A stretch of 24,000 nt of DNA from Oribacterium sp. C9 (GTDB lineage Bacteria > Bacillota > Clostridia > Lachnospirales > Lachnospiraceae): assembly GCF_002007235.1 (NCBI RefSeq), contig NZ_MUHW01000025.1, forward strand, positions 5,460 to 29,459, given 5' to 3'. Position numbers and translations under genes: made by a program. Positions within the stretch are counted from its first letter, which is position 1. Each line of letters opens with the position of its first letter. The notes under the pieces are model-generated. The model saw nothing but the letters and a program-made list of their open reading frames with translations, was not told where the DNA came from and ran no database searches. Below, piece after piece: positions 379-22,090 of this stretch.

Positions 379-492
379 ACCGTCCCCCACCAACAGACGA
401 AAACCAAAACGTGACATCTTGTCATGAAGTGTACCACCCACTGATGCGCACACACAAGTGGATGATAGCCCAAATTCACTGATTTCTTATCA

Positions 493-1833
493 TCAAAATC
501 TGAATACTTCTATATTCAGCATATTGCCGAGCATCTCAAGTTCGTCAGCGCAGCTTCCGTAGGTCACAACATAATGTGGCTCCCATCCATCCTTAACTGC
601 CTTCTCAACTATTTCCTTGGAATCATTTTCTGTCTTTACAACTATGGATGTTCCCAGGAACTGACGTGGCTTATCAAGAACAGCGCCTTCTGCGATAAAG
701 AATCTGAACTTGCCGTTCTCATCTCTTCCTACTCTGAAAATTGTGGCATGCTCTGTGCTCTCGCAGCCAAACTCCATGGTAGGACCAAGCTTTCTGTTAG
801 GATGTACGCCAACTACAGCGCCGGTATCCTTTCTTGCCAGATCACAGGAAGCCATTCCGCAATGCCAGAATGTAATGGTGTTCTCACCCTCATCAAGTGA
901 TACAGGATCGCCGAAGAAGCAGGATCTTCCTGTAAGCTTTGATCCGATATACATTGACAGAGCACCATAGGTATCGGATTCACAGCTTGCACTTACTCCG
1001 AGAGAGTTAAGAAGTGAAAGAACCGCACATACCGGTGTTCCGAAATCTGTAAAGAAATCCGGCCAGCAGCGTGAAGAAATGGCACCGATGTGATTCTCTG
1101 TCACATAATCCTTATATGCCTTGTAAAGCTTTGCAAAATCCTTTACGTTCTTCTCCGGTGTATTATCAAGTCCGACGATCTGCTTCTTTGCATCCTCGAG
1201 GTAAGGTGCACACTCTTCATCAGTATAGGACTTTGCCTTATTGATAAGCTCTCTTGACTCGATGGAATCAAGTGTTGCACCGAAAACCGATGTGATATCT
1301 GCATCCAGAGCTCTTCCGAAGCCAAAGCCCTGAGGTGTATGACCGATGGATACAAGCTTTAATCCCTTGAGATCTGCCTTGACTCTTGCTGCCTTGATAG
1401 CGGCTGCAGCCTTATCGATGATCTCCTTCTCTTCAGGTCCGCCGAACATATACTCGAACTTGGAATCCTTGCGGAATGCCTTGATACTGTTCGCTGCAGA
1501 GAAAGCACCTGTGAGTGAATTAAGTCTCAGTCTTCCACCATCGATAACAGGCTCTCTCAGTGTCCAGAGTAAGATAGGACATGAAAATCTGCGAAGTACC
1601 TCTGTTGCATATGCAGCGTTGGCAAAAGTAATGTTCTGTAAAACTATAAGATCCGGGTTGATCTCATCCAGGAACTCATTCAAAAGATCGATAGAGAGAA
1701 GCATCTCCTTAGGAACCACAACATCTTCTGTGATATCCTTAAGCATCTTTATTGATTTTTCGAACTGAATCTGTGCACTCTCTAAATGAAATGTTCCTAC
1801 TCCGATAGGCACATAAGCCACCTGAAAACCCAT
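493..1833 (-). CDS. L-fucose/L-arabinose isomerase superfamily protein (446 aa), substrate unknown
   Basis: Full-length ORF with a GAGGA RBS 8 nt before the ATG. The size and overall pattern (N-terminal Rossmann-like part MGFQVAYVPIGVGTF..., C-terminal GPTMEFGCE...IFRVGRDENGKFRFFIAEG) resemble the short FucI/AraA-like isomerase family. The assignment is from memory, not from a search. Confidence 0.55.
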   Translation of the reverse strand: MGFQVAYVPIGVGTFHLESAQIQFEKSIKMLKDITEDVVVPKEMLLSIDLLNEFLDEINPDLIVLQNITFANAAYATEVLRRFSCPILLWTLREPVIDGGRLRLNSLTGAFSAANSIKAFRKDSKFEYMFGGPEEKEIIDKAAAAIKAARVKADLKGLKLVSIGHTPQGFGFGRALDADITSVFGATLDSIESRELINKAKSYTDEECAPYLEDAKKQIVGLDNTPEKNVKDFAKLYKAYKDYVTENHIGAISSRCWPDFFTDFGTPVCAVLSLLNSLGVSASCESDTYGALSMYIGSKLTGRSCFFGDPVSLDEGENTITFWHCGMASCDLARKDTGAVVGVHPNRKLGPTMEFGCESTEHATIFRVGRDENGKFRFFIAEGAVLDKPRQFLGTSIVVKTENDSKEIVEKAVKDGWEPHYVVTYGSCADELEMLGNMLNIEVFRF

Positions 1834-1941
1834 TGTTATTTCCTCTTTTCCATTATTTAGTATTAAAATTATGTATTATTTTTCCGGAATGATGCCCGGG
1901 TCCGCATTTTACTTTTCAGACGGGGCATCACTCACTCCCCT

Positions 1942-3507
1942 TCAACAAGCCTCTTGAGCCTCAAGGTCGTTATGCATCTTGTTGATCTCTTCAGCCTGCT
2001 CTTCATTAAGGGCATCCACCTTCTTGTTGATTCGAAGCATTGACCAAACAAGGAGAACTGTGATCACAAGAATGATGAGAGATATAGGTCTCTTGAAGAA
2101 GATAAAGTAATCTCTGTCATAGGACATCATGGCTGTTACAAAGTTTGTTTCCATGATCTTTGCAAGGATAAGTCCGAGAAGAAGAGGGATAGCGTCTATC
2201 TCCATGATCTTCAGAAGATAACTGAACACAAGAAGTACAGCACAGAATACCATCTCCTTGAAGTTTCCTGTTCCTGCAAATGCTCCTGCGAAACAGAAGA
2301 GCATGATAGCTGGAGCAAGATAGGTGTACTTGACCTGAACCACCTTTGCAACGGCTCTTGTCATGACCTTACCTAAAGGCCAGAGGAAAAGGTTGGCAAC
2401 GAAACAGCCAACGATAATTGTGTATGCCTGAAGAGCCTGCTTTGTGAACATGTTCGGACCAGGCTGCATACCGTGAAGGATAAATGCTCCGAGAAGAAGG
2501 GCTGTAACACCATCTCCCGGGATACCCATGGTCATGAGAGGGATCATAGCTGAACCTACTACCGCATTGTTTGAAGACTCTGCAGCTGCGATTCCTTCAA
2601 GTGAACCCTTTCCAAACTTCTCAGGATGCTTTGAAAGCTGCTTTGCCTGGTTATAGCAAAGGAACTGGGCAACACCACCGCCTACACCGGGCATAGCACC
2701 GATAAAGGAAGCGATAATTGTTGAAAGTGCTGTTGCCGGAAGGATCGACTTTGCCTCTGAAAGGCTTAAGCCCTTCTTATCGATCTTATTGGCATCTTCC
2801 ATCTTTCCGCCGTTTACTTTGAACTCGGCAAGCTTTCCTACTACCTGCTTTAATGCTACGAGAGCGATCATGGCCGGAAGCATATCGATACCGAACTGAA
2901 GAATGGATACTCCAAAAGTAAATCTGGAAACGCCTGTTACAGCATCAACACCGATGCAGGCAATGAGTATTCCGAAAAGACCTGAAAGAATTCCCTTAGG
3001 AAGTGAATTACCGGAAACACCTGCAAGAAGTGAGATTCCGAGAACAGCCATTGAGAAATACTCAACTGATGTGAACTTTGAAACAAACGCTGCTATAGGA
3101 GCTGCAAGAACAAGAAGTAAAAGTGCTCCGATGATTCCACCGAAAGATGACGCAAAAAGTGATGTGTCAAGTGCCTGAAGAACTCTTCCCTTCTTAGCCA
3201 GCGGATAACCGTCAAATGTTGTGGCGATAGCCGAATTGGTTCCCGGTGTGTTAAGTGTGATGGCACTTATGGAACCACCGTACATTCCACCTACGTAAAC
3301 CGCAAGGAGTGAAATGATAGCTGTACTTGGATCCTTGATTCCGTAAGTAAGCGGAAGGAAAAGGATGATTCCAAGTGTAACGCTGAGACCCGGTATACAT
3401 CCGATGACCATGCCCATGAGCATTCCGCCGAATATAAATACCAGATTTCCTAATGTAAATACCGCAGCAAATGCGGAAGTAATATAATCAAAATATCCCA
3501 TAACCAT
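1942..3507 (-). CDS. tctA: Tripartite tricarboxylate transporter (TTT) large permease, TctA family
   Basis: 521-aa polytopic Gly/Ala-rich membrane protein. The N-terminus (MGYFDYITSAFAAVFTLGNLVFIFGGMLMGMVIGCIPGLS) is typical of TctA. It directly follows TctB- and TctC-like genes. The AGAGG RBS fits the second ATG (3501) better than 3507. Confidence 0.85.
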   Translation of the reverse strand: MVMGYFDYITSAFAAVFTLGNLVFIFGGMLMGMVIGCIPGLSVTLGIILFLPLTYGIKDPSTAIISLLAVYVGGMYGGSISAITLNTPGTNSAIATTFDGYPLAKKGRVLQALDTSLFASSFGGIIGALLLLVLAAPIAAFVSKFTSVEYFSMAVLGISLLAGVSGNSLPKGILSGLFGILIACIGVDAVTGVSRFTFGVSILQFGIDMLPAMIALVALKQVVGKLAEFKVNGGKMEDANKIDKKGLSLSEAKSILPATALSTIIASFIGAMPGVGGGVAQFLCYNQAKQLSKHPEKFGKGSLEGIAAAESSNNAVVGSAMIPLMTMGIPGDGVTALLLGAFILHGMQPGPNMFTKQALQAYTIIVGCFVANLFLWPLGKVMTRAVAKVVQVKYTYLAPAIMLFCFAGAFAGTGNFKEMVFCAVLLVFSYLLKIMEIDAIPLLLGLILAKIMETNFVTAMMSYDRDYFIFFKRPISLIILVITVLLVWSMLRINKKVDALNEEQAEEINKMHNDLEAQEAC

Positions 3508-3513
3508 ACCTCT

Positions 3514-3990
3514 TTAGATTATTCCCTTGAGTATTCCGGCCGGAAGATCCACATGGAACACATTCTGAAAAAGGAAGTAAACTACAACCACCATAGCCAG
3601 TGTATAAATGTAGATAAGCGGTTTTCTCTCACCCTCATACCATTGAATGGCACAAAAAATGAGCATTCCGGCAGGGATGAATCCCAGCGTCTTTGTGAGT
3701 GCAACAAACACTACCAGTGCGCCGATAAGAAGAAGCTCTTTTCTTTCGTTTTCCCAGACAAATTCATAAATATGCTCTTTATGGAAAACAAGGCTCTGTA
3801 CGAGAAGTACTATGGAACAGATCAGTATACCGACCAGGCAGATACCCGGTATGATCCTGGGACTTGGTGCTCCTGAGTCCCACATCGGAAGTCTTACCTG
3901 TGTAGGCATTATCAGAAGCATGATGACTGAGAAAAGTCCCATTACGATACCTGCCAACAGGTTGGTTTTAATTTTTATTGTTTTTTTCAT
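3514..3990 (-). CDS. tctB: TTT small membrane subunit, TctB family
   Basis: About 158 aa with four predicted hydrophobic helices, located between tctC and tctA. I place the start at ATG 3990 (MKKTIKIK...) because GGAG sits 8-9 nt upstream. The longer track ORF (to 4032) would run into the intercistronic hairpin. Confidence 0.7.
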   Translation of the reverse strand: MKKTIKIKTNLLAGIVMGLFSVIMLLIMPTQVRLPMWDSGAPSPRIIPGICLVGILICSIVLLVQSLVFHKEHIYEFVWENERKELLLIGALVVFVALTKTLGFIPAGMLIFCAIQWYEGERKPLIYIYTLAMVVVVYFLFQNVFHVDLPAGILKGII

Positions 3991-4018
3991 AAGAAAATCT
4001 CCAAAATAGACCAAAACA

Positions 4019-4048
4019 GCCCGGCACTGCACAAAGGCAATGCCGGGC
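4019..4048 (-). terminator. Intercistronic hairpin between tctC and tctB (attenuator or mRNA-stabiliser candidate)
   Basis: GCCCGGCA (4019-4026) pairs with TGCCGGGC (4041-4048), an 8-bp GC-rich stem with a 14-nt loop. On the minus strand it is followed by TGTTTTGGTCTATTTT. This arrangement commonly raises binding-protein expression relative to the permease genes. Confidence 0.4.
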
Positions 4049-4126
4049 AGCTCTTAAGTTTTTGACTTATTTATAATTCAATGAACAACAATTTATACTT
4101 GATAACGTGGATCAATACCTATTTAA

Positions 4127-5230
4127 TCAGTTCTGACCGCTGAGAAGCTTGAATGCCTCTACAGCTGCCTTACAAGCATCCTCATAGTGCTGAACATCAT
4201 CCTGTCCGTAGATCTCTGTATCGTTGAGCATGATGCTTGCGATGAAATCCTTGTATTCATCTGTTGCCCATACATCCTTGGCAACCTGAACAACTGCATC
4301 CTGCCACTCCTGTGAAGCACCCTTACGTGTTGCAAGAGAACCACCGGCTGGAAGGATTGACTTTGTGTAATCCTTTGATGCATCAAGATCAGCTGACTTT
4401 GCATCACCTGCAAGTGAAGGAACTGTTATATCACCCTGAGGTCCCTTGAAGCCCTTGAATGCATTCTCTGAGAATGCAAGTACAGGAATAAGATTACCTG
4501 CCTCAACGTCTTCCTGAGCAGCCTGTGTTGTTCCTACGAAACAGTCAACCTCGCCATCTGTAAGACCCTTCTTCTGAGCAGCACCGCCGTCGTAAGGTAC
4601 TACCATTACCTTTCCGCCTTCCTGTGCAAGAAGTGAACCTAAAGCAAGATGTGGATCTGAAAGAGGATTTCCTCCGGACATCTTAAGTCCGCCGGTCTTT
4701 GACTTCTCGATAAGTCCTGCAAGTGTCTGATCAGGTGTTGTGTAAAGGATCCATGTTCTGTCGTCTACTGTTGCAAGTGGAAGGATCTCACTTCTGTCAA
4801 ACTCTACAACCTCTGTATTGAACTGCTTTCCGAGATCATGACGGTAAGCTACGCCGTATCCGTAAACAAGAAGATCTGTTGTGCTAGGATCTTCCTGTGT
4901 GAATGCTGTAGCTGCTGCGAATCCGTCTCCGCCTGTCTGCTGCTCAACGATGAAGTTATATTCAGGATGAGTCTTTGTTGCTACCTCTGCGAACTTTCTT
5001 GCGATGATATCTGCAGTACCGCCTACACCGTAAGGACAGATAACCTTAACTGTCTCTCCGCTGCCTGTTGTAGCCTGCTTTTCCTCAGCCTTTGTCTCTG
5101 CAGCTGTCTCTGTTTTAGCTGCTTCTGTCTTTGCTGCCTCTGTTGTAGCCGGAGCTCCTGAGCTTCCGCATGCTGCAAGTAATGCAGCCATAGCTGTTGC
5201 AAGAATTCCTGCCAATAATTGTTTTCTCAT
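4127..5230 (-). CDS. tctC: TTT periplasmic-type substrate-binding lipoprotein, TctC/Bug family
   Basis: Signal peptide with lipobox (MRKQLLAGILATAMAALLAAC, Cys21). A low-complexity TEAAK-type linker precedes a ~300-aa Bug-like domain (VICPYGVGGTADIIARKF...). AGGAGG lies 8 nt before the ATG. Confidence 0.8.
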   Translation of the reverse strand: MRKQLLAGILATAMAALLAACGSSGAPATTEAAKTEAAKTETAAETKAEEKQATTGSGETVKVICPYGVGGTADIIARKFAEVATKTHPEYNFIVEQQTGGDGFAAATAFTQEDPSTTDLLVYGYGVAYRHDLGKQFNTEVVEFDRSEILPLATVDDRTWILYTTPDQTLAGLIEKSKTGGLKMSGGNPLSDPHLALGSLLAQEGGKVMVVPYDGGAAQKKGLTDGEVDCFVGTTQAAQEDVEAGNLIPVLAFSENAFKGFKGPQGDITVPSLAGDAKSADLDASKDYTKSILPAGGSLATRKGASQEWQDAVVQVAKDVWATDEYKDFIASIMLNDTEIYGQDDVQHYEDACKAAVEAFKLLSGQN

Positions 5231-11941: not shown

Positions 11942-12036
11942 AATTATACCCCTTCTCTATTATCCCCTTCTCATTAACCGTAAAGAGACCTGTTTTAAGT
12001 GACACATCCTGTGTCATATTATGACATAAGTGTCAT

Positions 12037-12082
12037 AAGTCTATCTCCCACTTGTGCTTGCACAAAAGTAGGAGATAGACTT
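12037..12082 (-). repeat. 46-nt near-perfect hairpin in the GRE-ADH intergenic region
   Basis: AAGTCTATCTCC (12037-12048) is the exact reverse complement of GGAGATAGACTT (12071-12082). The inner ACTTGTGC/GCACAAAAGT extends the stem with a 2-nt bulge. No U-tract follows on the transcribed strand. Confidence 0.5.
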
Positions 12083-12234
12083 CATGACACGCCACACATG
12101 GAGCATGGAAGGACGCTTTAGCGGCCTGGGAGTGCGGAATGTGGGAGAATCGTGAGAGCGCTCTGCGCGGAACGATTCTATGTCGACTTTTGACACTCAC
12201 GTCATATTATATTAAAAATCATATACCCGGCTAA

Positions 12235-14718
12235 TCAGAAACTAAGTTCAGTTCTCTGTATCAGATCCTTCTGGAGCGCCTTTCCGAGCTCTACAAAGTA
12301 CGCACTGTATCCGGCAACTCGCACCAGCATATCCTTGTAGTCTTCAGGATGCTTCTGAGCCGCCCTCATGGTGGCGGAGCTCATGATATTGAACTGTACA
12401 TGCATGGCTCCATGCTTTATGTACTGGTCGATAAATGCGATCATGTTGTCTCTTCCCTCTATTCCGGCAACTGCCTCCTGAGGGAATTTCATATTCATGA
12501 GAGTTCCGTTTCCCGCCTTGCTGTGATCAACCTTCGATACGGAATTTGTCAGGGCTGTCGGTCCCATCACATCATGGGAGCCTCCATCTGTGTGCACAGG
12601 TCCCATATTGTCGGAGATGGCCTCTCCCATCTTTCGGCCGTCAAGAGTTGCATTGGTCACCATACCCATGGCGACATTGGCATTGACAGAATATACTCCC
12701 GGATTGAACTGTCCGCCCTTTCTGTAGGTCTTTCTACCGCTGATATGACCTGTGTAACAATCGAACATGAACTTGAAAAGCTCATCTGCGTAATCATCGT
12801 CGTTACCGTAGTGATGAACCTTGGAACCGTTCACAAGAGCATACAGCATCTCATGTCCCTTCCAGTTGTCCTTTACAGCCTGAAGGAGCTCCGCGCCTGT
12901 CACCTTATGCTCGTCGAACATAAGCTGTTTGATAGTTGCCAGTGAATCGGTGCAGGTTCCGAGGCCGCTTGCCTGAGGACCGATACCGTTATACTTTGCG
13001 CCTCCCTCAGTAAGATCCTTTCCTGTGTCCATGCAGTTCTGGAAGAATGCCGATACATATGGAATCGGTTTTCTGTGCTCATGAGCCGCTTCGATGATAT
13101 TGAGACTTGAACACATCTGGTCGCACCAGTAGTCGAACTGCTTATCTATGCTTTTAAGAACCTCATCAAAGTTCTTATATGTCTCGAGGCTTCCGGTATC
13201 CGGTCCGAACTGCTCTTCGGAATCCAGGAACTTTCCTCCGTTGATGACCATTTCAAGCATCTTCGGGGTGTTTACATAAGCCGCATCATGCCATCCGTAC
13301 TCTGCTCCCGGAAGGTCAGGCTCAACGCATCCTACTACGCAGTAGTCTCTTGCTTCTTCGAGAGACATGCCCTTACCGAGCATTGCCTTTATGGCAGGTG
13401 CATCATTGAAAAGCTTTGGATGACCGAAGCCCGCACGTATACATTCAACGGTTTTTACCTTAAGCTCATAAGGTGTCTTTTCCGATAAACGAACACAGAT
13501 CCATGGAACCATCATCCTCGTATGCTCTGAAGCTTCCAGAACAAGAAAGGTAAGGTCGTTTGTGGCATCATTGCCATCCCTGTCGAGGCCGCCTATGGTG
13601 AGGCTTTCTCCTCCGAAGCCACGACCGTTTCTTACTGCGGTTGACCCCCAGTCCTTGAGCTTCGTCGGATTGTTAAGCTTCACGAACTGATCCTCAAGTA
13701 TCTCCAGAGCCTGCATCTTGGTGATCACACCGTCATCTATGTCAGCCTTATAGTACGGGTACAGCCATTGATCCATTCTTCCGTAGGATATGGAATGACC
13801 GTTACTTTCGATGGTGATAAGGGTCGTTGCAAAGTTAAAAAGCTGTACTGCCTGCCAGAAGGATCTCGCCGGACCTCCTGCGATCTGATGACAGTTAAAT
13901 GCCATCCTTTCAAGCTCTGCTTTCCTCTTTGTATCCTTTTCTTTTTCCGCATACTCTTCCGCAAGATCAGCATATCTTTCGATGTATGCCACCGATGCCG
14001 AAAGCTCTATGATCATGGCATCGTAAAAATCTCTCTTATCGGAGAACTCAGGGTCCTTCCTTGATAATGCTTCTCTCTTTTCCTTTGCCTCCGCAATAAG
14101 CCCGTTGAAACCCAGCTTCATGAGCTTTCCGTAATCTATGGCCAGATGTCCGGTGCCTGCGTAATGATATAGATTGGTCTGGAAGATCTTCTTCCCGGCT
14201 TCCGAGCCTTTGATCTGTTCGTCATCAAGACGCCCCTCTACTTCATCCGCAACGGTTCTGCCCTGCCACCACTTACAAAGCTCGATGGCCTCCTGCTTCT
14301 CCTCTTCACTTCTGAAATAGAACTGATCATGCTCTCTGTCTTCAAAAGGATGGTTTACTGCCTCATCAAGTATCCAGTTCACGGAAAATTCCGGATAGAT
14401 GGGTGACGCTTTCGTGGGAGCGGCATTATCACCCAATATAAGCTCCTGATCGTAGATATAGAGTGTCACATTTTCAAGGATGTGCTTAAAGGCATATGCA
14501 CACTGAAGCTTCGCAGGCGCTTTTGGATGTGCCTTGTAGGATTCCGTCACGAGACGAAGCCGCTCTATGTCTATCCAGTATTTTTTATCCAGAAATTCCT
14601 GCCTCAGATAGTTGATTCTCGGAAAGGGTGACCAGTCCTTGTGATGCACCTCATAACCCAGATGGCACTGATGATCAAAGGGTTCTGTCCCCTTTGCATT
14701 TGTATGATACTCCGTCAT
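12235..14718 (-). CDS. Glycyl radical enzyme of the dehydratase/eliminase (PFL2) class; by context a DHPS-converting enzyme (HpfG-type dehydratase or HpsG-type sulfolyase)
   Basis: The C-terminal glycyl-radical motif is MLVRVAGYSAYF (Gly codon at 12310-12312). The Cys loop is VVGCVEPDLPG, with a single Cys (13327-13329) followed by x-Glu as in glycerol dehydratase, CutC and IslA, not the CC pair of PFL. I set the start at ATG 14718 (MTEYHTNAKG) because AGGAGG lies 6 nt upstream; the track ORF extends to 14763. Confidence 0.9.
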   Translation of the reverse strand: MTEYHTNAKGTEPFDHQCHLGYEVHHKDWSPFPRINYLRQEFLDKKYWIDIERLRLVTESYKAHPKAPAKLQCAYAFKHILENVTLYIYDQELILGDNAAPTKASPIYPEFSVNWILDEAVNHPFEDREHDQFYFRSEEEKQEAIELCKWWQGRTVADEVEGRLDDEQIKGSEAGKKIFQTNLYHYAGTGHLAIDYGKLMKLGFNGLIAEAKEKREALSRKDPEFSDKRDFYDAMIIELSASVAYIERYADLAEEYAEKEKDTKRKAELERMAFNCHQIAGGPARSFWQAVQLFNFATTLITIESNGHSISYGRMDQWLYPYYKADIDDGVITKMQALEILEDQFVKLNNPTKLKDWGSTAVRNGRGFGGESLTIGGLDRDGNDATNDLTFLVLEASEHTRMMVPWICVRLSEKTPYELKVKTVECIRAGFGHPKLFNDAPAIKAMLGKGMSLEEARDYCVVGCVEPDLPGAEYGWHDAAYVNTPKMLEMVINGGKFLDSEEQFGPDTGSLETYKNFDEVLKSIDKQFDYWCDQMCSSLNIIEAAHEHRKPIPYVSAFFQNCMDTGKDLTEGGAKYNGIGPQASGLGTCTDSLATIKQLMFDEHKVTGAELLQAVKDNWKGHEMLYALVNGSKVHHYGNDDDYADELFKFMFDCYTGHISGRKTYRKGGQFNPGVYSVNANVAMGMVTNATLDGRKMGEAISDNMGPVHTDGGSHDVMGPTALTNSVSKVDHSKAGNGTLMNMKFPQEAVAGIEGRDNMIAFIDQYIKHGAMHVQFNIMSSATMRAAQKHPEDYKDMLVRVAGYSAYFVELGKALQKDLIQRTELSF

Positions 14719-14894
14719 ATATATCCTCCTGATGAAACGCCGGTCTTTGATATGGATAAGCAAAGCCGACGCTGCATATCTATATATGATGATGTAAAAG
14801 AGAAAAGTTGATCACGAAACATCAACTGAAGAAATACCATGTCCAACATCCTGCTGTGGATGCCGGACATGAACACAGAAGACTGTATCCGCCG

Positions 14895-15845
14895 TCACTT
14901 TCCGGTCCTGGTACCCACAAGACATTTAATGCCTCTCTCATTGAAGTATTCTGCTATCTTTTCCACCCGCCTCTGAAAACTCGGGCGGTTGAACTTCAGA
15001 TTTTTCATGGGATATTCCTGTCCCAAAGACTCATACTTCTCGATACCTAGGCGCATAAAGCTCAGAAGCTGCAGCACCTCTATGTTGTTGTTAAGTTCTT
15101 CCTTAATGAAATCCGCAGAAGCTTTTATATTCTCTTCATCATCATTTATATGTGGGATCACAGGGATGCGCAGTATGGTATCTATATTTTGTCCGGAAAG
15201 TTTTTTCAGATTCTCGCGAATCAGCTCATTGCCAACGCCGGTATATACGCGATGCTTGGTGCTGTTCATCAGTTTAAGATCAGAGATCACAAGGTCCGTA
15301 TAGGGAAGCACCTTTTCAACCTCGTTCCATGAAACGGAAAAAGTGGATTCCAAACAGGTATGAATGTTCTCCTCTTTACATCTCTTAAACAGCTCTCTTA
15401 CGAAATCTGCCTGAAGCAGAGGCTCTCCGCCGGAAACAGTCACTCCGCCTCCGGACTCTTCATAATAACCCTTGTCTCTCAGAATAATCTCCATGCATTC
15501 CTGAACCGACATCTTCTTTCCCCAGCTTCTTATGGCGTCCGAGGGACAATTATCCCCGCATACCATACATCCCTGGCAATCAGCTCTTTCAAGTCTCACA
15601 GGCTTGTTCCTGAAAAACTGCAGTACATTATCCTTCGGACAGACTGCCTTGCAGGCACCGCACTGCTTCAGTCCTATGCATTTTTTCTTATAAAGCCCCG
15701 GTTCTATTCCGGGCTTCTGACTCTCCGGATTGCTGCACCATCTGCACCTCAGTGGGCATCCCTTGAGAAAAAGCTCTGTCCTCATTCCCGGTCCGTCATG
15801 TATGGTAAATCTCTGAATATTAAAAACAATTCCTTCTGTACTCAA
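14895..15845 (-). CDS. Glycyl-radical-enzyme activating enzyme (radical SAM, with two auxiliary ferredoxin-like clusters)
   Basis: The N-terminus FNIQRFTIHDGPGMRTELFLKGCPLRCRWCSNPES carries CxxxCxxC. It is followed by CIGLKQCGACKAVCP and CQGCMVCGDNCP, and GGVTVSGGEPL is the SAM-binding motif. The start codon at 15845 is TTG with GGTGA 4 nt upstream. Confidence 0.9.
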   Translation of the reverse strand: MSTEGIVFNIQRFTIHDGPGMRTELFLKGCPLRCRWCSNPESQKPGIEPGLYKKKCIGLKQCGACKAVCPKDNVLQFFRNKPVRLERADCQGCMVCGDNCPSDAIRSWGKKMSVQECMEIILRDKGYYEESGGGVTVSGGEPLLQADFVRELFKRCKEENIHTCLESTFSVSWNEVEKVLPYTDLVISDLKLMNSTKHRVYTGVGNELIRENLKKLSGQNIDTILRIPVIPHINDDEENIKASADFIKEELNNNIEVLQLLSFMRLGIEKYESLGQEYPMKNLKFNRPSFQRRVEKIAEYFNERGIKCLVGTRTGK

Positions 15846-16057: not shown

Positions 16058-16093
16058 ATGGATGTAAACAGTTCTGTCAAGCCAAAAGAATAA

Positions 16094-16128
16094 GCACATC
16101 ACTGTCGTTTTCCGACATAATGATGTGC
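16094..16128 (-). terminator. Terminator-like hairpin distal to the RT gene and its 3' structured element
   Basis: GCACATCA (16094-16101) pairs with TGATGTGC (16121-16128), an 8-bp stem with a 19-nt loop. On the minus strand it is followed by TTATTCTTTT. Confidence 0.4.
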
Positions 16129-16136
16129 CATATCAC

Positions 16137-16273
16137 AAAAAACGGGCGGGGTTCCATTGAATGGCTGTGCCGTCAAAAACACACCCTTACAGCGGCCGTC
16201 TGCCGAGCCGTTTTTTGCCGAAGAGCTGTTTTCTGTGCAGACGCGCATATGTATGCGCACCCGCCCGTTTTTT
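16137..16273. ncRNA. 137-nt multi-helix structured element (candidate RT-associated ncRNA); strand not resolvable from sequence
   Basis: A perfect 14-bp closing stem pairs AAAAAACGGGCGGG (16137-16150) with CCCGCCCGTTTTTT (16260-16273), enclosing 109 nt. The enclosed region contains CGTCTGC/GCAGACG (16197-16203 / 16237-16243), the palindrome GCGCATA-TG-TATGCGC (16243-16258) and CCAT/ATGG (16154-16164). The element begins 35 nt after the RT stop codon. Confidence 0.4.
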
Positions 16274-16308
16274 CATTATGATGGTGGTGTTAAAAAAACA
16301 GTTTAAAT

Positions 16309-17547
16309 CTATATCCTTTTATCATTCTCATCGATACCATGATAGAAGGCATGAACCAGTGTACGGTATCCCATTCTTTGCATAGTCTTATATCGGACCC
16401 TGTATTTGGAATCAGTTCTCTTGCCTCCGCTTCCGACATAGCGTATACATTCCTGACAGTAATTGTCAAGCTTACGGAGACTGTCACAACGAGTCAGTAT
16501 CCTGAAGGACCAGTCAACCCAGTTGAGCTCGTTGGTATCAAGTCCTCTTCCGAAAAAATACATATCTATCCTGTCTATCATTTTCTTCATGGTCTCTTCT
16601 CTGGACAAACCATACTTTTTTTGACACCTCACCAGCTTTCTGGCTTTGTGATTCATACGCCACATTATGGATTTCATAGAATGCTTTGATATATCATACT
16701 CTCGTCCTTCTATGGAAAAACCAAGAAGATCAAATTTCTCCCCGGGCATAAGTATATCTGTTTTATCTTCATTAAATGAAAGTCCTCTTTCTGAAAACAG
16801 ATCCTTAAGCTTTATGTATATCCCTTTGGCCTCCTCCTGAGACGATGAAAAAATCGCTATATCATCTGCATAGCGACAGTAATAATCGCATTCCTTCCTG
16901 ATAAGCATATCTACGTCTTTAAGGTAAACATTCTCAAAAAATGTGGTCAGGGGACATCCGCTAAGGGCTCCTGTAGAACCTTCCATGAGCCTGCCGTCAG
17001 CATAAAACCGTCCCCTCATCAAAAGTGTCCTTAAAAACCAGCAAAGATCCGGATCTGTATCTTTAAATAAAGCATCAAGCATATCCGCAAGAATACCGGG
17101 CTGAAGACTGTCTCCATAGCTTTTAATATCTGATTTCAGGACCCATTTGGTATTACACAGATCATTCTTTCTTATGTCATAAAATATTCTGGAAACATGC
17201 TTTCCGATTCTGAAAGAATAGACCGAATCTTCATAAATATCATCATAATCATGAAGCACAAAGGCCATGAGCTTCATGAGCATCTTCTCTTCAGCTAAAA
17301 AACGGTATATGGTCCTTTTTTTCTGGCTGCTTTTCTTTTTAAGTAAGGTCCTGTGAGGTATGGACAGAAAAAAATCACGGTTACAGAGACGTTTTATATC
17401 CGTTTTACATTTATCTGAAAGGATATACTCCTTTAATTCGGCAAGTTCTTCCGGGCTTATGTTATATGAACCTTCCTTTCTCAAAAGGAAAGCATCCCGA
17501 ACCTCGGGAGATAGCATTTTTTCAAAAACAGTTGCTGTATTATTCAT
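16309..17547 (-). CDS. Stand-alone reverse transcriptase (RNA-directed DNA polymerase), group-II-like/unclassified lineage, with no endonuclease or other fused domain
   Basis: 412 aa with RT motifs in order: KKKSSQKKRTIYRF (1), EEKMLMKLMAFVL (2), WVLKSDIKSYGDSL (A/3), GALSGCPLTTFFENVYL (B/4), YCRYADDIAIF (C/5, YADD at 16861-16872), LSFNEDKTDIL (D/6) and FDLLGFSI (E/7). A ~130-aa helical thumb/X-like tail follows (MIDRIDMYFFGRG...LRKLDNYCQECIRYV). Confidence 0.85.
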   Translation of the reverse strand: MNNTATVFEKMLSPEVRDAFLLRKEGSYNISPEELAELKEYILSDKCKTDIKRLCNRDFFLSIPHRTLLKKKSSQKKRTIYRFLAEEKMLMKLMAFVLHDYDDIYEDSVYSFRIGKHVSRIFYDIRKNDLCNTKWVLKSDIKSYGDSLQPGILADMLDALFKDTDPDLCWFLRTLLMRGRFYADGRLMEGSTGALSGCPLTTFFENVYLKDVDMLIRKECDYYCRYADDIAIFSSSQEEAKGIYIKLKDLFSERGLSFNEDKTDILMPGEKFDLLGFSIEGREYDISKHSMKSIMWRMNHKARKLVRCQKKYGLSREETMKKMIDRIDMYFFGRGLDTNELNWVDWSFRILTRCDSLRKLDNYCQECIRYVGSGGKRTDSKYRVRYKTMQRMGYRTLVHAFYHGIDENDKRI

Positions 17548-17675
17548 CTTTTCATGCCCCCTGAATAAACATGGAGTGCCGGTATAAACCGGCTCTAATA
17601 TACTACAACAGCTTATTTTTTACCATTTTATCATAGCCGGCTCATGCCGTAAAGATAGCCATCACAGGACGCAAC

Positions 17676-17684: not shown

Positions 17685-17723
17685 ACAAGGTAAGTGTATG
17701 GTTATTTTTTGAGGACATGTACC

Positions 17724-19913
17724 ATGAACATAAATATCCCTATAACGATACAGATGCATTCCGCCGAAAACGCAATTGCTGTGATAGCTTCCATGCTCGG
17801 GGCCTACGGAAGATTCGAGCCCCTTGAAAAGCTGCGCGAAAAAACAGTGGCTTCCAGAAACGGTTCCACTCCCGAACAGCTTTCGGATATGGCAGAGCAG
17901 TTCGGACTGGATACGGAAATTCTGAATATTTCAAAAGATGACATCTGTAAGCAGACTTTCCCACTGGTGGCCTTCTGGAAGAAAAGGTATTACTGCATAG
18001 TAAAAAAGATAGACGGAGAAAGGGTATATGTCATGGATCCTTCAAAGGGAAATGTATGCCTGCCTCTTTCATTTTTTAAAGACAGATTCTCCGGCATCAT
18101 GATAAGGATGGTTCCCGGTGACGGTTTTTTAAAAAGCGGAACCAGGCCCCGGATATTTAATATTATCTTCCGGCGCATGAAGGGAATGGAGGCCGTACTT
18201 ATAAAGGTCATCATCCTTAACATCCTCGCTGTGGTACTGAATCTTATCATGATCAACAGCCAGAGGATCCTGCTTGATATGGCATCAGATACAACAGGAG
18301 CTTCCGGATTTACTTCGCCCTTAAACCATCAGCTTATGATGAAGCTCCCGACCCCGCTCCAAAATACCTCAGGCCTTATTCTGGCCACGATGTATGTGTC
18401 TCTTGCCCTTCTTACCATTGTTAATGTTTTAAAAACTCTCTTCATCTTCAGATCAGCTTTTTTGAATGCTGCAAAATCTGAATCAGCCCTCTTTAAGAAG
18501 CTGTTTGCCCAGCCTCTTCAGTTTTTTGAGCAGTACAGCATCGGTGAGCTGATGCAGCGTATAGACACCAATAAGAATCTGAGCATGTCTCTCATCAGAA
18601 GCATAGTCCCAAGATTTCTGGATCTGCTGATGGTCTTGCTTTATGGTATTCAGATGTTCCTGTTTAACCCTGTGCTGGGCGTCCTCTGTCTTCTGGTGGA
18701 GATAATCTATCTTATACTGTCCGGTATCCTTCAGTCTGAGATCGCAAACCGGGCCAGAGTTCTAAGTACAAGTGCAAATTCCATGAACTCCGTCACCTTA
18801 AGCGGTCTTGGAAACATTGAAACCATCAAGGCCGGCGGTGTGGAAAGGGTCTTTTTTTCAAGATGGAACAAGGCACAGCGTCTTTACCGCGAAAGTCGTT
18901 TTGACAATATAAATATCAAACAGGCATCCACAGCTCTGAACGGATTCCGTTCCGTCTTTTCGCAGGGCATGATACTGTTTGCAGGCGCGTATTTCATCAT
19001 AAAGGGGAATTTCACTCTTGGAATGATGGCAGCACTTCAGTCAATTCTTGCAAACCTGAGAAAAAGCCTCTCAAACTGCGTTCAGACCGTAAACTCTCTT
19101 CAAAGCACCAGAACCAGCATAGAACGGGTCGAAGACATCGAAAACAGACACCTGAGAAATGAGATACCTCTTCATGAAAAGGAAGAACCGGTACAATTTC
19201 CCGGAAATCTGGAAGTAAAGAATATTGTATTCCGGTACAATGCCGGTGATCCTCCCGCCATTCAGGATGTATCTCTATCCGTAAAAAGCGGTGAGATCAT
19301 CGCTATCGTGGGAGAAAGCGGCTGCGGAAAGACGACTCTCCTTAAATGCATAGGAGACATGTATCAGCCCGAATCCGGAAGCATCCTATATTCGGGAAAA
19401 GAAAGAGCGGCCATTCCTGATGTGGTATTTCATTCATCTCTTGCAATGGTCAATCAGGAAGTAATGACGTTTCAGGATACCATCATGTCCAATATAACCC
19501 TATGGGATTCCACCATAGCAAATTATGACGTTATCATGGCCGCCAATGAGGCCCAGATCCATAAACGGATAATGAGGGATCGAGACGGATATTACGGGTC
19601 TGTTCTTGAAAACGGCAAAAATTTTTCAGGGGGAGAGCTCCAGAGGATGGACCTGGCAAGAGCTCTTGCAAAGGAACCCACTCTGCTCCTGCTGGATGAA
19701 TTCACATCATCCCTTGATGCTCTGACTGAAGAGAAGGTTTTTGAAGCTTTACGAAAAAAGGGCACCACCTGTATCATTTCGGCCCACAGACTTTCCACTG
19801 TTGCATCCTGTGACCGTATTTACTGCATGGAAAAGGGGCGAATTGTTGAAAGCGGAACTCATAATGAACTTATGGAGATGGACGGTCTTTATAAACGGCT
19901 GGTCAATGCTTAG
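17724..19913 (+). CDS. ABC exporter (TMD-NBD) with an N-terminal catalytically inactive C39-peptidase-like domain
   Basis: The N-terminus IQMHSAENAIAVIASMLGAYG aligns to the C39 motif Q-x4-[DE]CG...YYG, with the Cys position occupied by Asn (17769-17771). FWKKRYYCIV stands in for the His-containing strand (His to Tyr, 17988-17990). Six TM segments follow. The NBD has Walker A GESGCGKTT, signature FSGGELQRM, Walker B LLLLDEFTSSLD and H-loop SAHRLST. The start is set at ATG 17724 with GAGGA 8 nt upstream. Confidence 0.85.
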   Translation: MNINIPITIQMHSAENAIAVIASMLGAYGRFEPLEKLREKTVASRNGSTPEQLSDMAEQFGLDTEILNISKDDICKQTFPLVAFWKKRYYCIVKKIDGERVYVMDPSKGNVCLPLSFFKDRFSGIMIRMVPGDGFLKSGTRPRIFNIIFRRMKGMEAVLIKVIILNILAVVLNLIMINSQRILLDMASDTTGASGFTSPLNHQLMMKLPTPLQNTSGLILATMYVSLALLTIVNVLKTLFIFRSAFLNAAKSESALFKKLFAQPLQFFEQYSIGELMQRIDTNKNLSMSLIRSIVPRFLDLLMVLLYGIQMFLFNPVLGVLCLLVEIIYLILSGILQSEIANRARVLSTSANSMNSVTLSGLGNIETIKAGGVERVFFSRWNKAQRLYRESRFDNINIKQASTALNGFRSVFSQGMILFAGAYFIIKGNFTLGMMAALQSILANLRKSLSNCVQTVNSLQSTRTSIERVEDIENRHLRNEIPLHEKEEPVQFPGNLEVKNIVFRYNAGDPPAIQDVSLSVKSGEIIAIVGESGCGKTTLLKCIGDMYQPESGSILYSGKERAAIPDVVFHSSLAMVNQEVMTFQDTIMSNITLWDSTIANYDVIMAANEAQIHKRIMRDRDGYYGSVLENGKNFSGGELQRMDLARALAKEPTLLLLDEFTSSLDALTEEKVFEALRKKGTTCIISAHRLSTVASCDRIYCMEKGRIVESGTHNELMEMDGLYKRLVNA

Positions 19914-19918
19914 AAGCT

Positions 19919-22090
19919 ATGGGAATATTCAGTAATCTTATTATTCAAAGAGACGAAAGAGACAGAGACGCGGAGCATAAGGCAGATCTCAATATGACAA
20001 ATCATCTGGAGACTTCCGGCGCCGATTCTCTTTCTGCTGCCCAAAATATCATCCACTATATCCTAAACAGATACAATATCAGCGCAAAAGCAGTTTACGG
20101 ATGTGACACTCTGGAGGATATGATGGATCTTATTCTTGATCCTCTGGGAATGATGTATGATGAAGCAGATCTTAAAGATCCTTCTTGGAAAAAAAGAAAC
20201 GATCTAATGCTGGGGTTTTTATGTGACGGTACAGCCATTGCCCTGATACCTGGCATTTTCGGCTACAAATTCATCAGTTCAAAGGACGGAAAAAAACATC
20301 TTGTGACAAATAAGACACCGCTGAAGCAAAAGGCCTATGCGATCTACCGACCTCTTCCCAGTGAGAAGCTTAGTCTCTGGCACCTCCTTATATATATGCT
20401 TCATATACTGTCTCCCAGAGATTATATTCTGGTGATGACAGCAAGTATAGCTGTCACCCTCCTCGGACTGGTGATCCCGAAAATGAATGCCCTTGTTCTT
20501 AAAGAGGTTGTTCCCAAAGGTTCAGAAGGAATCCCTCTTTTGATTGAACTTGCACTCCTTTTTTCTTTGTCAGGATGCATAAGAAGCGCCATATCTGCCA
20601 TAAAAGGAATCCTTTTGGGAAGAACCAGAGAACGAATCGCAGGCCAGACTCAGGCCGCCGTTATGGCAAGGCTCCTTCTCCTGTCCCAAAGCTACTTTAC
20701 AAAATATTCAACGGGTAATCTCGCAAAGCAGATAAGCAACACAAGGAGGCTTTGTGACCAGATTACAGGATTTGTACTGGATTCTCTTTTTACCGCTATT
20801 TTCTCTGTGGCCTATATATTCCAGATGCAGGATTTTTCGGCGGTACTGGCATTGCCGGCCCTCACCGTTCTTTTTATACGCTGCATTCTGTCCTTTATTA
20901 TAGCCTTATACGAAGCAGGTAACGACAGGAACACACTTGCTGCAGAAACGGAATCGGATTCCTTTTTATATACAGCCATAAAAGGAGTGCAGACTGTAAA
21001 GGGAAACGGTGCGGAAAGGCGTCTTTATGCCAACTGGGTCAGACGCTACAGCAAAGTTTTAAAGTATGATCTGGACAAGCCCGTGATCTTAAAGCTGGAA
21101 GACGTCATAACCGACCTTGTTTCTTCCGTAGGAACGGTGATTCTGATCTCTATGGTGATACCCTTTGGAATCGATGTCACTGACTATCTTGCTTTTATCA
21201 ATGCTTATGGTCTGATAGTTACCGCATGCTCATCTCTTATGGAATCCTTTGAAAAAATCATACTCATGAAACCCATGGCGGAAACTCTTTCAGATCTCAT
21301 GAAGGAGCACATAGAGTGTGTAGAGGGAGGAACCTACCTTAGAAATGTCCGGGGAGAGCTAAGGATCGAAAACCTTTCTTTCTCCTATGAAGGCACCGGC
21401 AGAAGCTGCCTTAAGGATATTTCCTTCGGAGTAAAAAAGGGCGAAAAAGTTGCGATAGTAGGGGAGAGCGGGTGCGGAAAAAGCACTCTTTTAAAGCTCA
21501 TACTCGGCGCTCTCAGACCTGATGGCGGAGGAATCTATATCGACGGAAATGAACTCAGTACCATAAACCTGAGATCCTACAGAAAACACGTGGGCTCTGT
21601 ATTTCAGTTCAGCAGTCTCATGCCGGGCACCATATATTCCAATATCGCCTTTGGTCCCGTACCGGTTTCGAGGGACACTGCTGTGGAGGCTGCCCAAAAA
21701 GCGGATATTCTGGATTATATAAACACCTTGCAGATGGGACTGGATACAGAAATTTCAGAATCCGGATCCAAAGGTTTCTCAGGCGGACAAAGGCAGCGTA
21801 TCCTTCTGGCAAGAGCATTTGCTTCCCATCCCAGCATTCTCCTACTGGATGAAGCAACTTCGGCTCTTGATAATGTCTCTCAGTCAAAGGTCCTCGAGTC
21901 CGTATATAAGGAAAAATGTACGGTCGTTATGGTTGCCCACAGACTTTCAACGGTGAAGAAGTGCGACCGCATCATCATGCTTGATGACGGGACAGTCATC
22001 GAACATGGAACTTACGACGAACTCATCAAAAAGAACGGCGCCTTCGCAAATCTTGTCAGAAGACAGCAGATGTCAGCATGGTCAGACTAA
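19919..22090 (+). CDS. ABC exporter (TMD-NBD) partner subunit with a ~160-aa N-terminal domain of unknown function
   Basis: It starts 5 nt after the stop of the previous gene. It has Walker A GESGCGKST, signature FSGGQRQRILLARA, Walker B ILLLDEATSALD and H-loop VAHRLST. The N-terminal domain has no C39 motifs. The paired layout resembles the bacteriocin-type 'peptidase/ATP-binding + ATP-binding' ABC pairs. Confidence 0.85.
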   Translation: MGIFSNLIIQRDERDRDAEHKADLNMTNHLETSGADSLSAAQNIIHYILNRYNISAKAVYGCDTLEDMMDLILDPLGMMYDEADLKDPSWKKRNDLMLGFLCDGTAIALIPGIFGYKFISSKDGKKHLVTNKTPLKQKAYAIYRPLPSEKLSLWHLLIYMLHILSPRDYILVMTASIAVTLLGLVIPKMNALVLKEVVPKGSEGIPLLIELALLFSLSGCIRSAISAIKGILLGRTRERIAGQTQAAVMARLLLLSQSYFTKYSTGNLAKQISNTRRLCDQITGFVLDSLFTAIFSVAYIFQMQDFSAVLALPALTVLFIRCILSFIIALYEAGNDRNTLAAETESDSFLYTAIKGVQTVKGNGAERRLYANWVRRYSKVLKYDLDKPVILKLEDVITDLVSSVGTVILISMVIPFGIDVTDYLAFINAYGLIVTACSSLMESFEKIILMKPMAETLSDLMKEHIECVEGGTYLRNVRGELRIENLSFSYEGTGRSCLKDISFGVKKGEKVAIVGESGCGKSTLLKLILGALRPDGGGIYIDGNELSTINLRSYRKHVGSVFQFSSLMPGTIYSNIAFGPVPVSRDTAVEAAQKADILDYINTLQMGLDTEISESGSKGFSGGQRQRILLARAFASHPSILLLDEATSALDNVSQSKVLESVYKEKCTVVMVAHRLSTVKKCDRIIMLDDGTVIEHGTYDELIKKNGAFANLVRRQQMSAWSD

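Follow-up and report, generated by a model that had tools for sequence, protein, structure and literature searches.

The DNA analysed in this work (the window) is a stretch of 24,000 nucleotides (nt) of Oribacterium sp. C9, positions 5,460 to 29,459 of contig NZ_MUHW01000025.1 in assembly GCF_002007235.1. Its minus strand carries a gene for a reverse transcriptase (RT), followed by a 137-nt element that is enclosed by long inverted repeats. The RT belongs to UG26, a small group within the class 2 UG/Abi RTs for which no noncoding RNA (ncRNA) is described and for which the prediction of a defence role was inconclusive (Mestre et al. 2022, PMC9226505). The results below indicate that the element is probably the gene of a structured RNA, a relative of the RNA motif RT-5 and a dedicated partner of this RT. 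RT-5 is one of the motifs RT-1 to RT-19, which occur near RT genes and which were speculated to be members of retrons or diversity-generating retroelements (DGRs) (Weinberg et al. 2017, PMC5737381). No paper linking RT-5 to UG26, or describing an ncRNA of UG26 RTs, was found in the literature. The RT gene, the element and the flanking signals are listed here with their positions in the window; the predicted parts of the RNA are given from its 5' to its 3' end.

17625..17653 (-): promoter-like site upstream of the RT gene, TTTACG-17-TAAAAT, a consensus match only; candidate start of an RT-RNA transcript
16309..17547 (-): RT gene, 412 amino acids (aa), intact YADD active-site motif, Pfam RVT_1; divergent member of UG26
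16137..16273 (-): ncRNA gene of 137 nt, diverged RT-5 type; sole copy in the window; matched by the covariance models R1 and R2 and by Rfam RT-5
16260..16273 (-): 5' strand of the closing stem P1 (AAAAAACGGGCGGG), exact complement of 16137-16150
16243..16258 (-): hairpin P2, GCGCAU-ACAU-AUGCGC, from the fold and from family covariation
16237..16242 (-): 5' strand of the pseudoknot, GUCUGC, just 3' of P2 and complementary to 16198-16203
16217..16233 (-): 5' strand of the long central stem P3, GAAAACA-GCUCUU-CGGC, from the minimum-free-energy fold and covariation
16210-16216 (-): A-rich joining segment before P4
16194..16209 (-): hairpin P4, GGCU-CGGCAGAC-GGCC, which caps P3; from the Rfam RT-5 alignment and covariation
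16198..16203 (-): 3' strand of the pseudoknot, GCAGAC, within the P4 loop and complementary to 16237-16242; from family covariation
16175..16193 (-): 3' strand of P3, GCUG-U-AAGGGU-G-UGUUUUU, from the minimum-free-energy fold and covariation
16154..16171 (-): mini-hairpin P5, GGC-ACA-GCC, then the single-stranded motif AUUCAAUGG; family consensus UUNAAA
16137..16150 (-): 3' strand of P1 (CCCGCCCGUUUUUU), complement of 16260-16273; from the family alignment
16082..16128 (-): terminator-like hairpin (16094-16128) with a U-rich tail, local to this genome

Fold of the element

A preliminary description of this DNA, made from the letters alone, had reported exact 14-nt inverted repeats, AAAAAACGGGCGGG (16137-16150) and CCCGCCCGTTTTTT (16260-16273), which enclose 109 nt and begin 35 nt past the stop codon of the RT gene. 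These positions were confirmed, with the RT open reading frame (ORF) at 16309..17547 (-), and the internal helices GCGCAU/AUGCGC, GUCUGC/GCAGAC and CCAU/AUGG are present as described. The window contains a single perfect 14-nt inverted repeat whose loop does not exceed 200 nt; such a repeat was found in three of 200 mononucleotide shuffles. The 137-nt element has a folding energy of -58 kcal/mol (z = -4.2), and for the surrounding 241-nt region the z-score is -5.8 on the RT strand versus -4.3 on the opposite strand. In the predicted RNA of RT sense (-), P1 closes the structure, which inside holds P2 and the long P3 capped by P4; a pseudoknot joins the P4 loop (GCAGAC) to GUCUGC, and the variable P5 and the UUNAAA-type motif follow. 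U-G and G-U pairs occur in both P3 and P4 of this predicted fold, so that the earlier statement that all pairs are of the Watson-Crick type has to be dropped.

The second hairpin of the preliminary description, at 16094-16128 (-), was found again: its folding energy is -22.4 kcal/mol (z = -6.2), and the U-rich UUAUUCUUUU comes after it. It was missed by a simple terminator scan because it is branched. This hairpin is not a conserved companion of the RNA, as in loci L006, L009 and L081 of the comparison set introduced below the next gene comes directly after the RNA, with its start about 20 nt away.

A close relative of the region is found in locus L001 (strain JC7, contig ALYD01000013.1), where the stretch corresponding to 16137-16310 shows few base differences and no helix is affected. 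Two of these differences affect unpaired letters of the element (after P3, GAC/GAA; before P1, AACCCC/AAUCCC), and the remaining ones are in the spacer past the RT stop codon.

Family, covariation and strand

The RT matches the PADLOC model RT_UG26 over its full length (positions 3-395 of 398; E = 4e-100, 333 bits), far above the runner-up models UG27 (E = 4e-26) and UG17 (E = 1e-23), which identifies it as a UG26 RT. Because canonical UG26 RTs score higher (480-543 bits), the enzyme is assigned to a divergent branch of the group. All ten RTs from comparison loci that were checked with PADLOC were likewise UG26 (307-543 bits). Pfam detected RVT_1 alone in the window RT, and in a profile search against solved structures the similarity, that to group II RTs included, was confined to the RT domain and gave no specific mechanistic clue.

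The comparison set consisted of 46 protein homologues and 80 genomic loci, mostly from rumen and gut metagenome-assembled genomes. The covariance model R1 was built from 16 copies of the window type, and R2 from 64 matches to R1. In the 24-kb window R2 has exactly one match, at 16138-16272 (-) with 93.9 bits, and among the 80 UG26 loci it matches over its full length in 75 (41-117 bits). In the genomes with the closest RTs (L002-L009, 52-57% identity) the element comes directly after the stop codon and the order of the helices is kept, while the stem sequences have changed yet are still complementary. In the nearest relatives, on metagenome contigs (L081-L084, 70% identity), it lies 17-32 nt past the RT stop codon. 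The element is thus neither absent beside orthologous RTs nor a generic repeat, given its presence at 75 of 80 loci, its single occurrence in 24 kb and the RT-adjacent position of metagenome copies. With the fold found at 75 of 80 RT genes and covariation in every helix, the proposal in the preliminary description of an RT-linked structured RNA comparable to the ncRNA partners of defence RTs, rather than a terminator, is borne out.

An Rfam scan at the gathering score gave no match at the element in the window and none in L001-L020. A permissive scan placed RT-5 (RF03026) on 16149-16246 (-), covering all 104 model positions with 25.3 bits (E = 0.006-0.04). Bona fide RT-5 was found upstream of the RT gene and on the same strand in 19 of 20 canonical UG26 loci tested, with Rfam scores of 49-91 bits; the RTs of these loci are about 30-35% identical to the window RT. 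Such bona fide copies score 73-105 bits under R2, and since this single model recognises both the window type and RT-5, the two types would form one family. A common fold and common conserved nucleotides are apparent from the full-model alignment, the R2 scores and the joint covariation, and adjacency to an RT gene from the distance of 35 nt to the window RT stop codon and from the 75 of 80 loci.

RT-5 itself has GCCUGC 5' of its long stem, the inner-hairpin loop UUGCAGGC that is complementary to this GCCUGC, a next hairpin and a UUCAAA-type tail, as does the window type in its own version, and both adjoin UG26 RT genes. P1 and P2 are present in both types as well, but fall outside the 104-position Rfam model. 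The window type differs in that its sequence has diverged (the pseudoknot reads GUCUGC/GCAGAC, the 3' strand of P3 is rich in U, and P5 is very short), that neither the window copy nor any copy in L001-L020 reaches the 45.7 bits required by Rfam, and that the window copy lies 3' of the RT gene whereas RT-5 lies 5' of it. Judged by sequence and predicted structure, the element is therefore best filed as a diverged and relocated relative of RT-5 that partners a divergent UG26 RT.

Covariation was scored on an alignment of 64 sequences with a hand-drawn structure, to which the pseudoknot had been added by hand. In total, 92.2% of the cells were paired, compared to 66.5% in shuffles, none of 500 of which reached the observed value, and to 44-49% when partners were slid along the alignment. 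Compensatory changes were found in all 46 pairs, those of the pseudoknot included. For P1, 13 of 13 pairs covary with 97.1% of cells paired, for P2 6 of 6 (93%) and for P4 4 of 4 (98%), and the P3 helices covary with 85-86% of cells paired. The pseudoknot, which is absent from the covariance model, shows covariation in 7 of 7 pairs with 98.4% of cells paired, and it occurs in variants such as GUCUGCA/UGCAGAC, GCCUGC/GCAGGC, GUUUUCA/UGAAAAC, GCCAGCA/UGCUGGC, GUCCACA/UGUGGAC and GUUCUCA/UGAGAAC. Because it is outside the model, the alignment procedure did not favour its pairs; this control and that with slid partners are free of model-fitting bias. Sequence conservation is concentrated in the single-stranded UUNAAA motif and where P1, P2, the pseudoknot and P4 meet. 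A structure calculated by RNAalifold from a MAFFT alignment was discarded in favour of the hand-drawn one, because P3 and P4 were missing from it and the pseudoknot helix appeared as a nested one.

The preliminary description had considered the functional strand impossible to deduce. However, R1 scores the window copy with 109.8 bits on the minus strand versus 20.1 bits on the plus strand. This difference (110 against 20 bits) and the many G-U pairs in the family allow the strand to be assigned as the RT-sense (-) strand.

Placement, transcription and gene neighbours

The position of the RNA relative to the RT gene is variable. In about 55 loci it precedes the RT gene on the same strand, and in the window, L002-L009, L022, L027 and L081-L084 it follows the RT gene on that strand, whereas it is antisense downstream in L032 and L068 and antisense upstream in L010, L011, L020, L023 and L024. 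In five loci there are tandem arrays, with three copies in L003 (4249-4742), two each in L004 (4255-4590), L009 (4241-4558) and L011 (2639-2939, minus strand), and four in L022 (4301-4928). Extra copies were always in tandem and adjoining the RT. Most of the differences between the units of an array fall in the P2 loop and in the P5 hairpin, which is flanked by the conserved motifs UUUUGA and UUGAAUG; the units of L022 also differ in the pseudoknot, with compensating changes. P5 may therefore be a candidate specificity or template segment, a suggestion that comes from few, related loci and that we regard only as a lead.

Sigma-70-like promoter sequences with at least 9 of 12 matches, ending 4-9 nt before P1, were found for 20 of 84 copies, compared to 0.7 expected. 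Both copies of L011 and those of L020, L023, L024 and L068 have such a promoter, L010 is without one, and the site of L027 is perfect (TTGACA-16-TATAAT). For the window, where the best site of this kind has only 8 of 12 matches, read-through from the promoter-like site of the RT gene (17653-17625) is a likelier source of the RNA. The co-transcription with the RT that had been proposed is therefore plausible for this genome. Many homologues of the RNA have a strong promoter of their own, and some are antisense.

A reverse search, in which the sequence pattern was used on metagenome contigs, matched at least 120 stretches. Among the 80 loci listed, four are true elements, the remainder being chance matches, and in the three that could be assessed an RT lies directly upstream on the same strand; with so few true elements this reverse test rests on few cases. 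The variation in placement (upstream, downstream, antisense, in arrays) with adjacency to the RT kept implies that the RNA acts in trans. By these comparative data, the element is an independent RNA gene that is coupled to the RT and often appears to have its own promoter, rather than a cis element.

The genes next to the RT-RNA module are not known defence genes according to Pfam and PADLOC, but ABC transporters and a glycyl-radical enzyme operon. Divergent from the RT gene lies the following pair:

17694..22090 (+): pair of ABC transporter genes; C39 peptidase domain in the first (Pfam)

Throughout the RT clade of the window such a pair adjoins the module, namely in the window, L003-L007, L009-L012, L015, L019-L021, L081-L084, L122, L150 and L155. 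It is divergent in the window, L007, L020 and L081-L083, downstream on the same strand in L003, L004, L006, L009, L012, L015, L019, L021 and L150, upstream on the same strand in L005, L010 and L011, and convergent in L084 and on the contig carrying P0006. At least four orientations in different taxa, with RTs that are only 34-70% identical to that of the window, suggest a functional link rather than an inherited gene order. Canonical UG26 loci lack the ABC pair. A 27-nt stretch of the second ABC gene (20213-20239) resembles 16160-16186 in the same sense with 81% identity, slightly above shuffles and probably by chance.

In 30 canonical UG26 loci (L025-L078) a conserved ORF of about 170-230 aa without a Pfam match ends just before the RNA, for example at 2341-2838 in L034, 2213-2839 in L048 and 1753-2688 in L077. 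Nine of 35 UG26 members were reported to have a YcjD/COG2852-like cluster (Mestre et al. 2022, PMC9226505), and the upstream ORF may be the same. Locus L023 contains an ORF of 1271 aa (385-4200, plus strand) with an N-terminal radical SAM part (PF19864, PF04055) and a C-terminal UG26 RT. Its RNA gene, with a strong promoter, is located divergently upstream, and the RNA of L024 (120-250, minus strand) is placed in the same way, far upstream of the RT match.

On the other side of the RNA, the region 12235-15845 (-) looks like an ordinary operon, with genes for a pyruvate formate lyase-like glycyl-radical enzyme at 12235-14763 and for a radical SAM activase at 14895-15845. The terminator-like hairpin and an A+T-rich spacer separate the RNA from it. 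A Clostridiales-1 RNA (RF01699, 111 bits, full length) was found at 12022-12185 (+), between the genes for an alcohol dehydrogenase and the glycyl-radical enzyme.

Function and comparison with known systems

Comparative sequence analysis shows here how the RNA folds, which strand encodes it, to which family it is related and that its gene is tightly coupled to UG26 RT genes. On this basis we consider it probable that the element is the gene of a structured RNA of about 135 nt, related to RT-5, which is the dedicated partner of the UG26 RT and, by analogy, its bound scaffold and template. The latter role is inferred because every characterised class 2 UG RT behaves in this way. By analogy with DRT2, DRT9, DRT10 (UG17) and UG27, the RT would bind the RNA as a scaffold and copy a defined internal segment of it into complementary DNA (cDNA), and this cDNA would be the active product of the system. 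In Oribacterium sp. C9 the RNA would probably be made by read-through from the RT promoter, with the transcript ending at the downstream hairpin.

Several observations weigh against this explanation. For UG26 the templating step is purely an analogy, and inspection of the loops by eye revealed neither an A-B-A' pattern of the DRT10 type nor a poly-U template. The element scores 25.3 bits, below the RT-5 gathering score of 45.7 bits. Five of the 80 loci have no element, although in one of these the RT lies at the end of the contig, and no convincing promoter of its own precedes the window element, the best site having 8 of 12 matches. Furthermore, the alignment used for counting the pairs of the nested helices had been fitted to the model, by which pairing is somewhat inflated; even so, we argue that the covariation signal is real.

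It is conceivable, but unlikely, that the RNA is a true partner of the RT with another role than that of template, for example as a regulator, an antitoxin-like inhibitor or a scaffold only. In one version of this idea it might keep the RT or the linked membrane proteins inactive, like the RNA repeats of type III antitoxins. The tandem arrays in L003, L004, L009, L011 and L022 would agree with such a role, as would the often independent transcription that is suggested by promoter-like sites, and a template-like repeat pattern was not recognised in the RNA. On the other hand, the catalytic YADD motif of the RT is intact, and DRT2, DRT9, DRT10 and UG27 all use their ncRNA as template (10.1101/2025.10.16.682844; 10.64898/2026.09.22.753630). 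A retron, in which an msr-msd RNA with an a1/a2 closing stem yields branched multicopy single-stranded DNA (ssDNA) primed from an RNA 2'-OH, was brought to mind in the preliminary description by the long repeats, and the resemblance does exist: a structured RNA lies between long inverted repeats beside an RT, the NCBI protein name is 'retron-type RT', and Weinberg et al. (2017, PMC5737381) speculated that many of the RT motifs are parts of retrons. The comparison fails at the enzyme, which is UG26 over its full length (E = 4e-100), with no retron RT model among the best 25 of 69 PADLOC matches. The RNA is also located downstream of the RT here and antisense in several relatives, which does not match the msr-msd-ret operon order, and its conserved core is a pseudoknot instead of an msd stem. 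With differences in RT clade, in gene order and orientation and in the core of the RNA, a retron is very improbable.

We give hardly any weight to the idea that the element is just the cis-acting 3' end of the RT messenger, an unusual or bidirectional terminator or a stabiliser that has no function in trans. It does follow directly on the stop codon, with a G+C-rich stem between a run of A and a run of U; however, the 109-nt interior is conserved and covaries, the RNA is upstream of the RT in most relatives and antisense with its own promoter in some, and in L006, L009 and L081 the next gene comes directly after the RNA without a terminator. An intrinsic terminator was ruled out for the 137-nt element, with its covarying 'loop' of 109 nt and its usual position ahead of the RT, while the hairpin at 16094-16128 does resemble one. 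Least credible of all is a dispersed repeat, that is, a miniature transposable element with terminal inverted repeats, or a DGR template repeat. Perfect terminal inverted repeats, the occurrence of several copies in some loci and the 27-nt stretch with 81% similarity to the neighbouring ABC gene could be quoted in favour, but there is a single copy in the 24-kb window, extra copies elsewhere are in tandem and RT-adjacent, and the three assessable cases among the four true elements in the 80 listed metagenome matches all adjoin an RT. For the 27-nt match the level is that of shuffled controls; the mismatches are not specific to adenines, and 13 other loci lack the match. A search for a DGR gave no template/variable repeat pair with adenine differences in the window or in 13 other loci. 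Neither an intron RNA family in the Rfam scan of the window nor a maturase domain by Pfam was detected that would point to a group II intron.

If the preferred explanation of a UG26 RT with a dedicated RNA partner is correct, the link between UG26 and RT-5 defines a system with two components, the RT (about 400 aa) and its RNA (about 135 nt), directly testable by cloning. It also provides the RT-5 motif, an orphan since 2017, with a mapped fold, pseudoknot, strand and probable ends. The linkage to ABC exporters in the clade of the window points to a candidate for the effector, or else to another biological role. More tentatively, and with rather low expectations, one may propose that the UG26 RT and the RT-5-type RNA are a further RNA-templated system for DNA synthesis, in which P5 or the P3/P4 region would give rise to a short cDNA that acts together with the ABC exporter pair. 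To our knowledge, a pairing of an RT-RNA module with a membrane export or effector machine has not been described for any RT system.

UG26 and UG27 are each other's next-best PADLOC model, and this reciprocal ranking suggests that UG27 is the sister group of UG26. UG27 systems are phage-borne, need two accessory proteins and contain arrays of ncRNA units of 135-167 nt, most of them pseudoknotted, and the RT copies each unit's central hairpin into ssDNA of 50-100 nt (10.64898/2026.09.22.753630). With UG26 they share units of similar size that have a basal stem, a pseudoknot and a central hairpin, and also tandem arrangement in varying copy number. However, UG26 arrays are short (1-4 units, the window having a single one) and the neighbouring genes differ. 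Viral contigs yielded no UG26 RT, and R2 had no match in 32 UG27 loci taken from such contigs. As far as these profile searches reach, the RT-5-type RNA is specific to UG26 as opposed to UG27.

DRT2 (UG2), DRT9 (UG28) and DRT10 (UG17) repeatedly copy a short stretch of the ncRNA dedicated to them, and for these systems both the templates and the products (a concatemeric gene, poly-dA, tandem repeats) are known (10.1101/2025.10.16.682844). They belong to other RT groups and their RNAs lie upstream of the genes, and neither a poly-U tract nor an A-B-A' pattern was recognised in the UG26 RNA. What the system in the window has in common with them is a dedicated structured ncRNA beside the RT that is conserved together with it: in each case a compact RT without an extra domain has an adjacent multi-stem ncRNA of about 130-180 nt, and linkage to membrane proteins is frequent. 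The likeness extends to the RNA of DRT10, which is 137 nt long and consists of a large stem bearing smaller stem-loops (10.1101/2025.10.16.682844).

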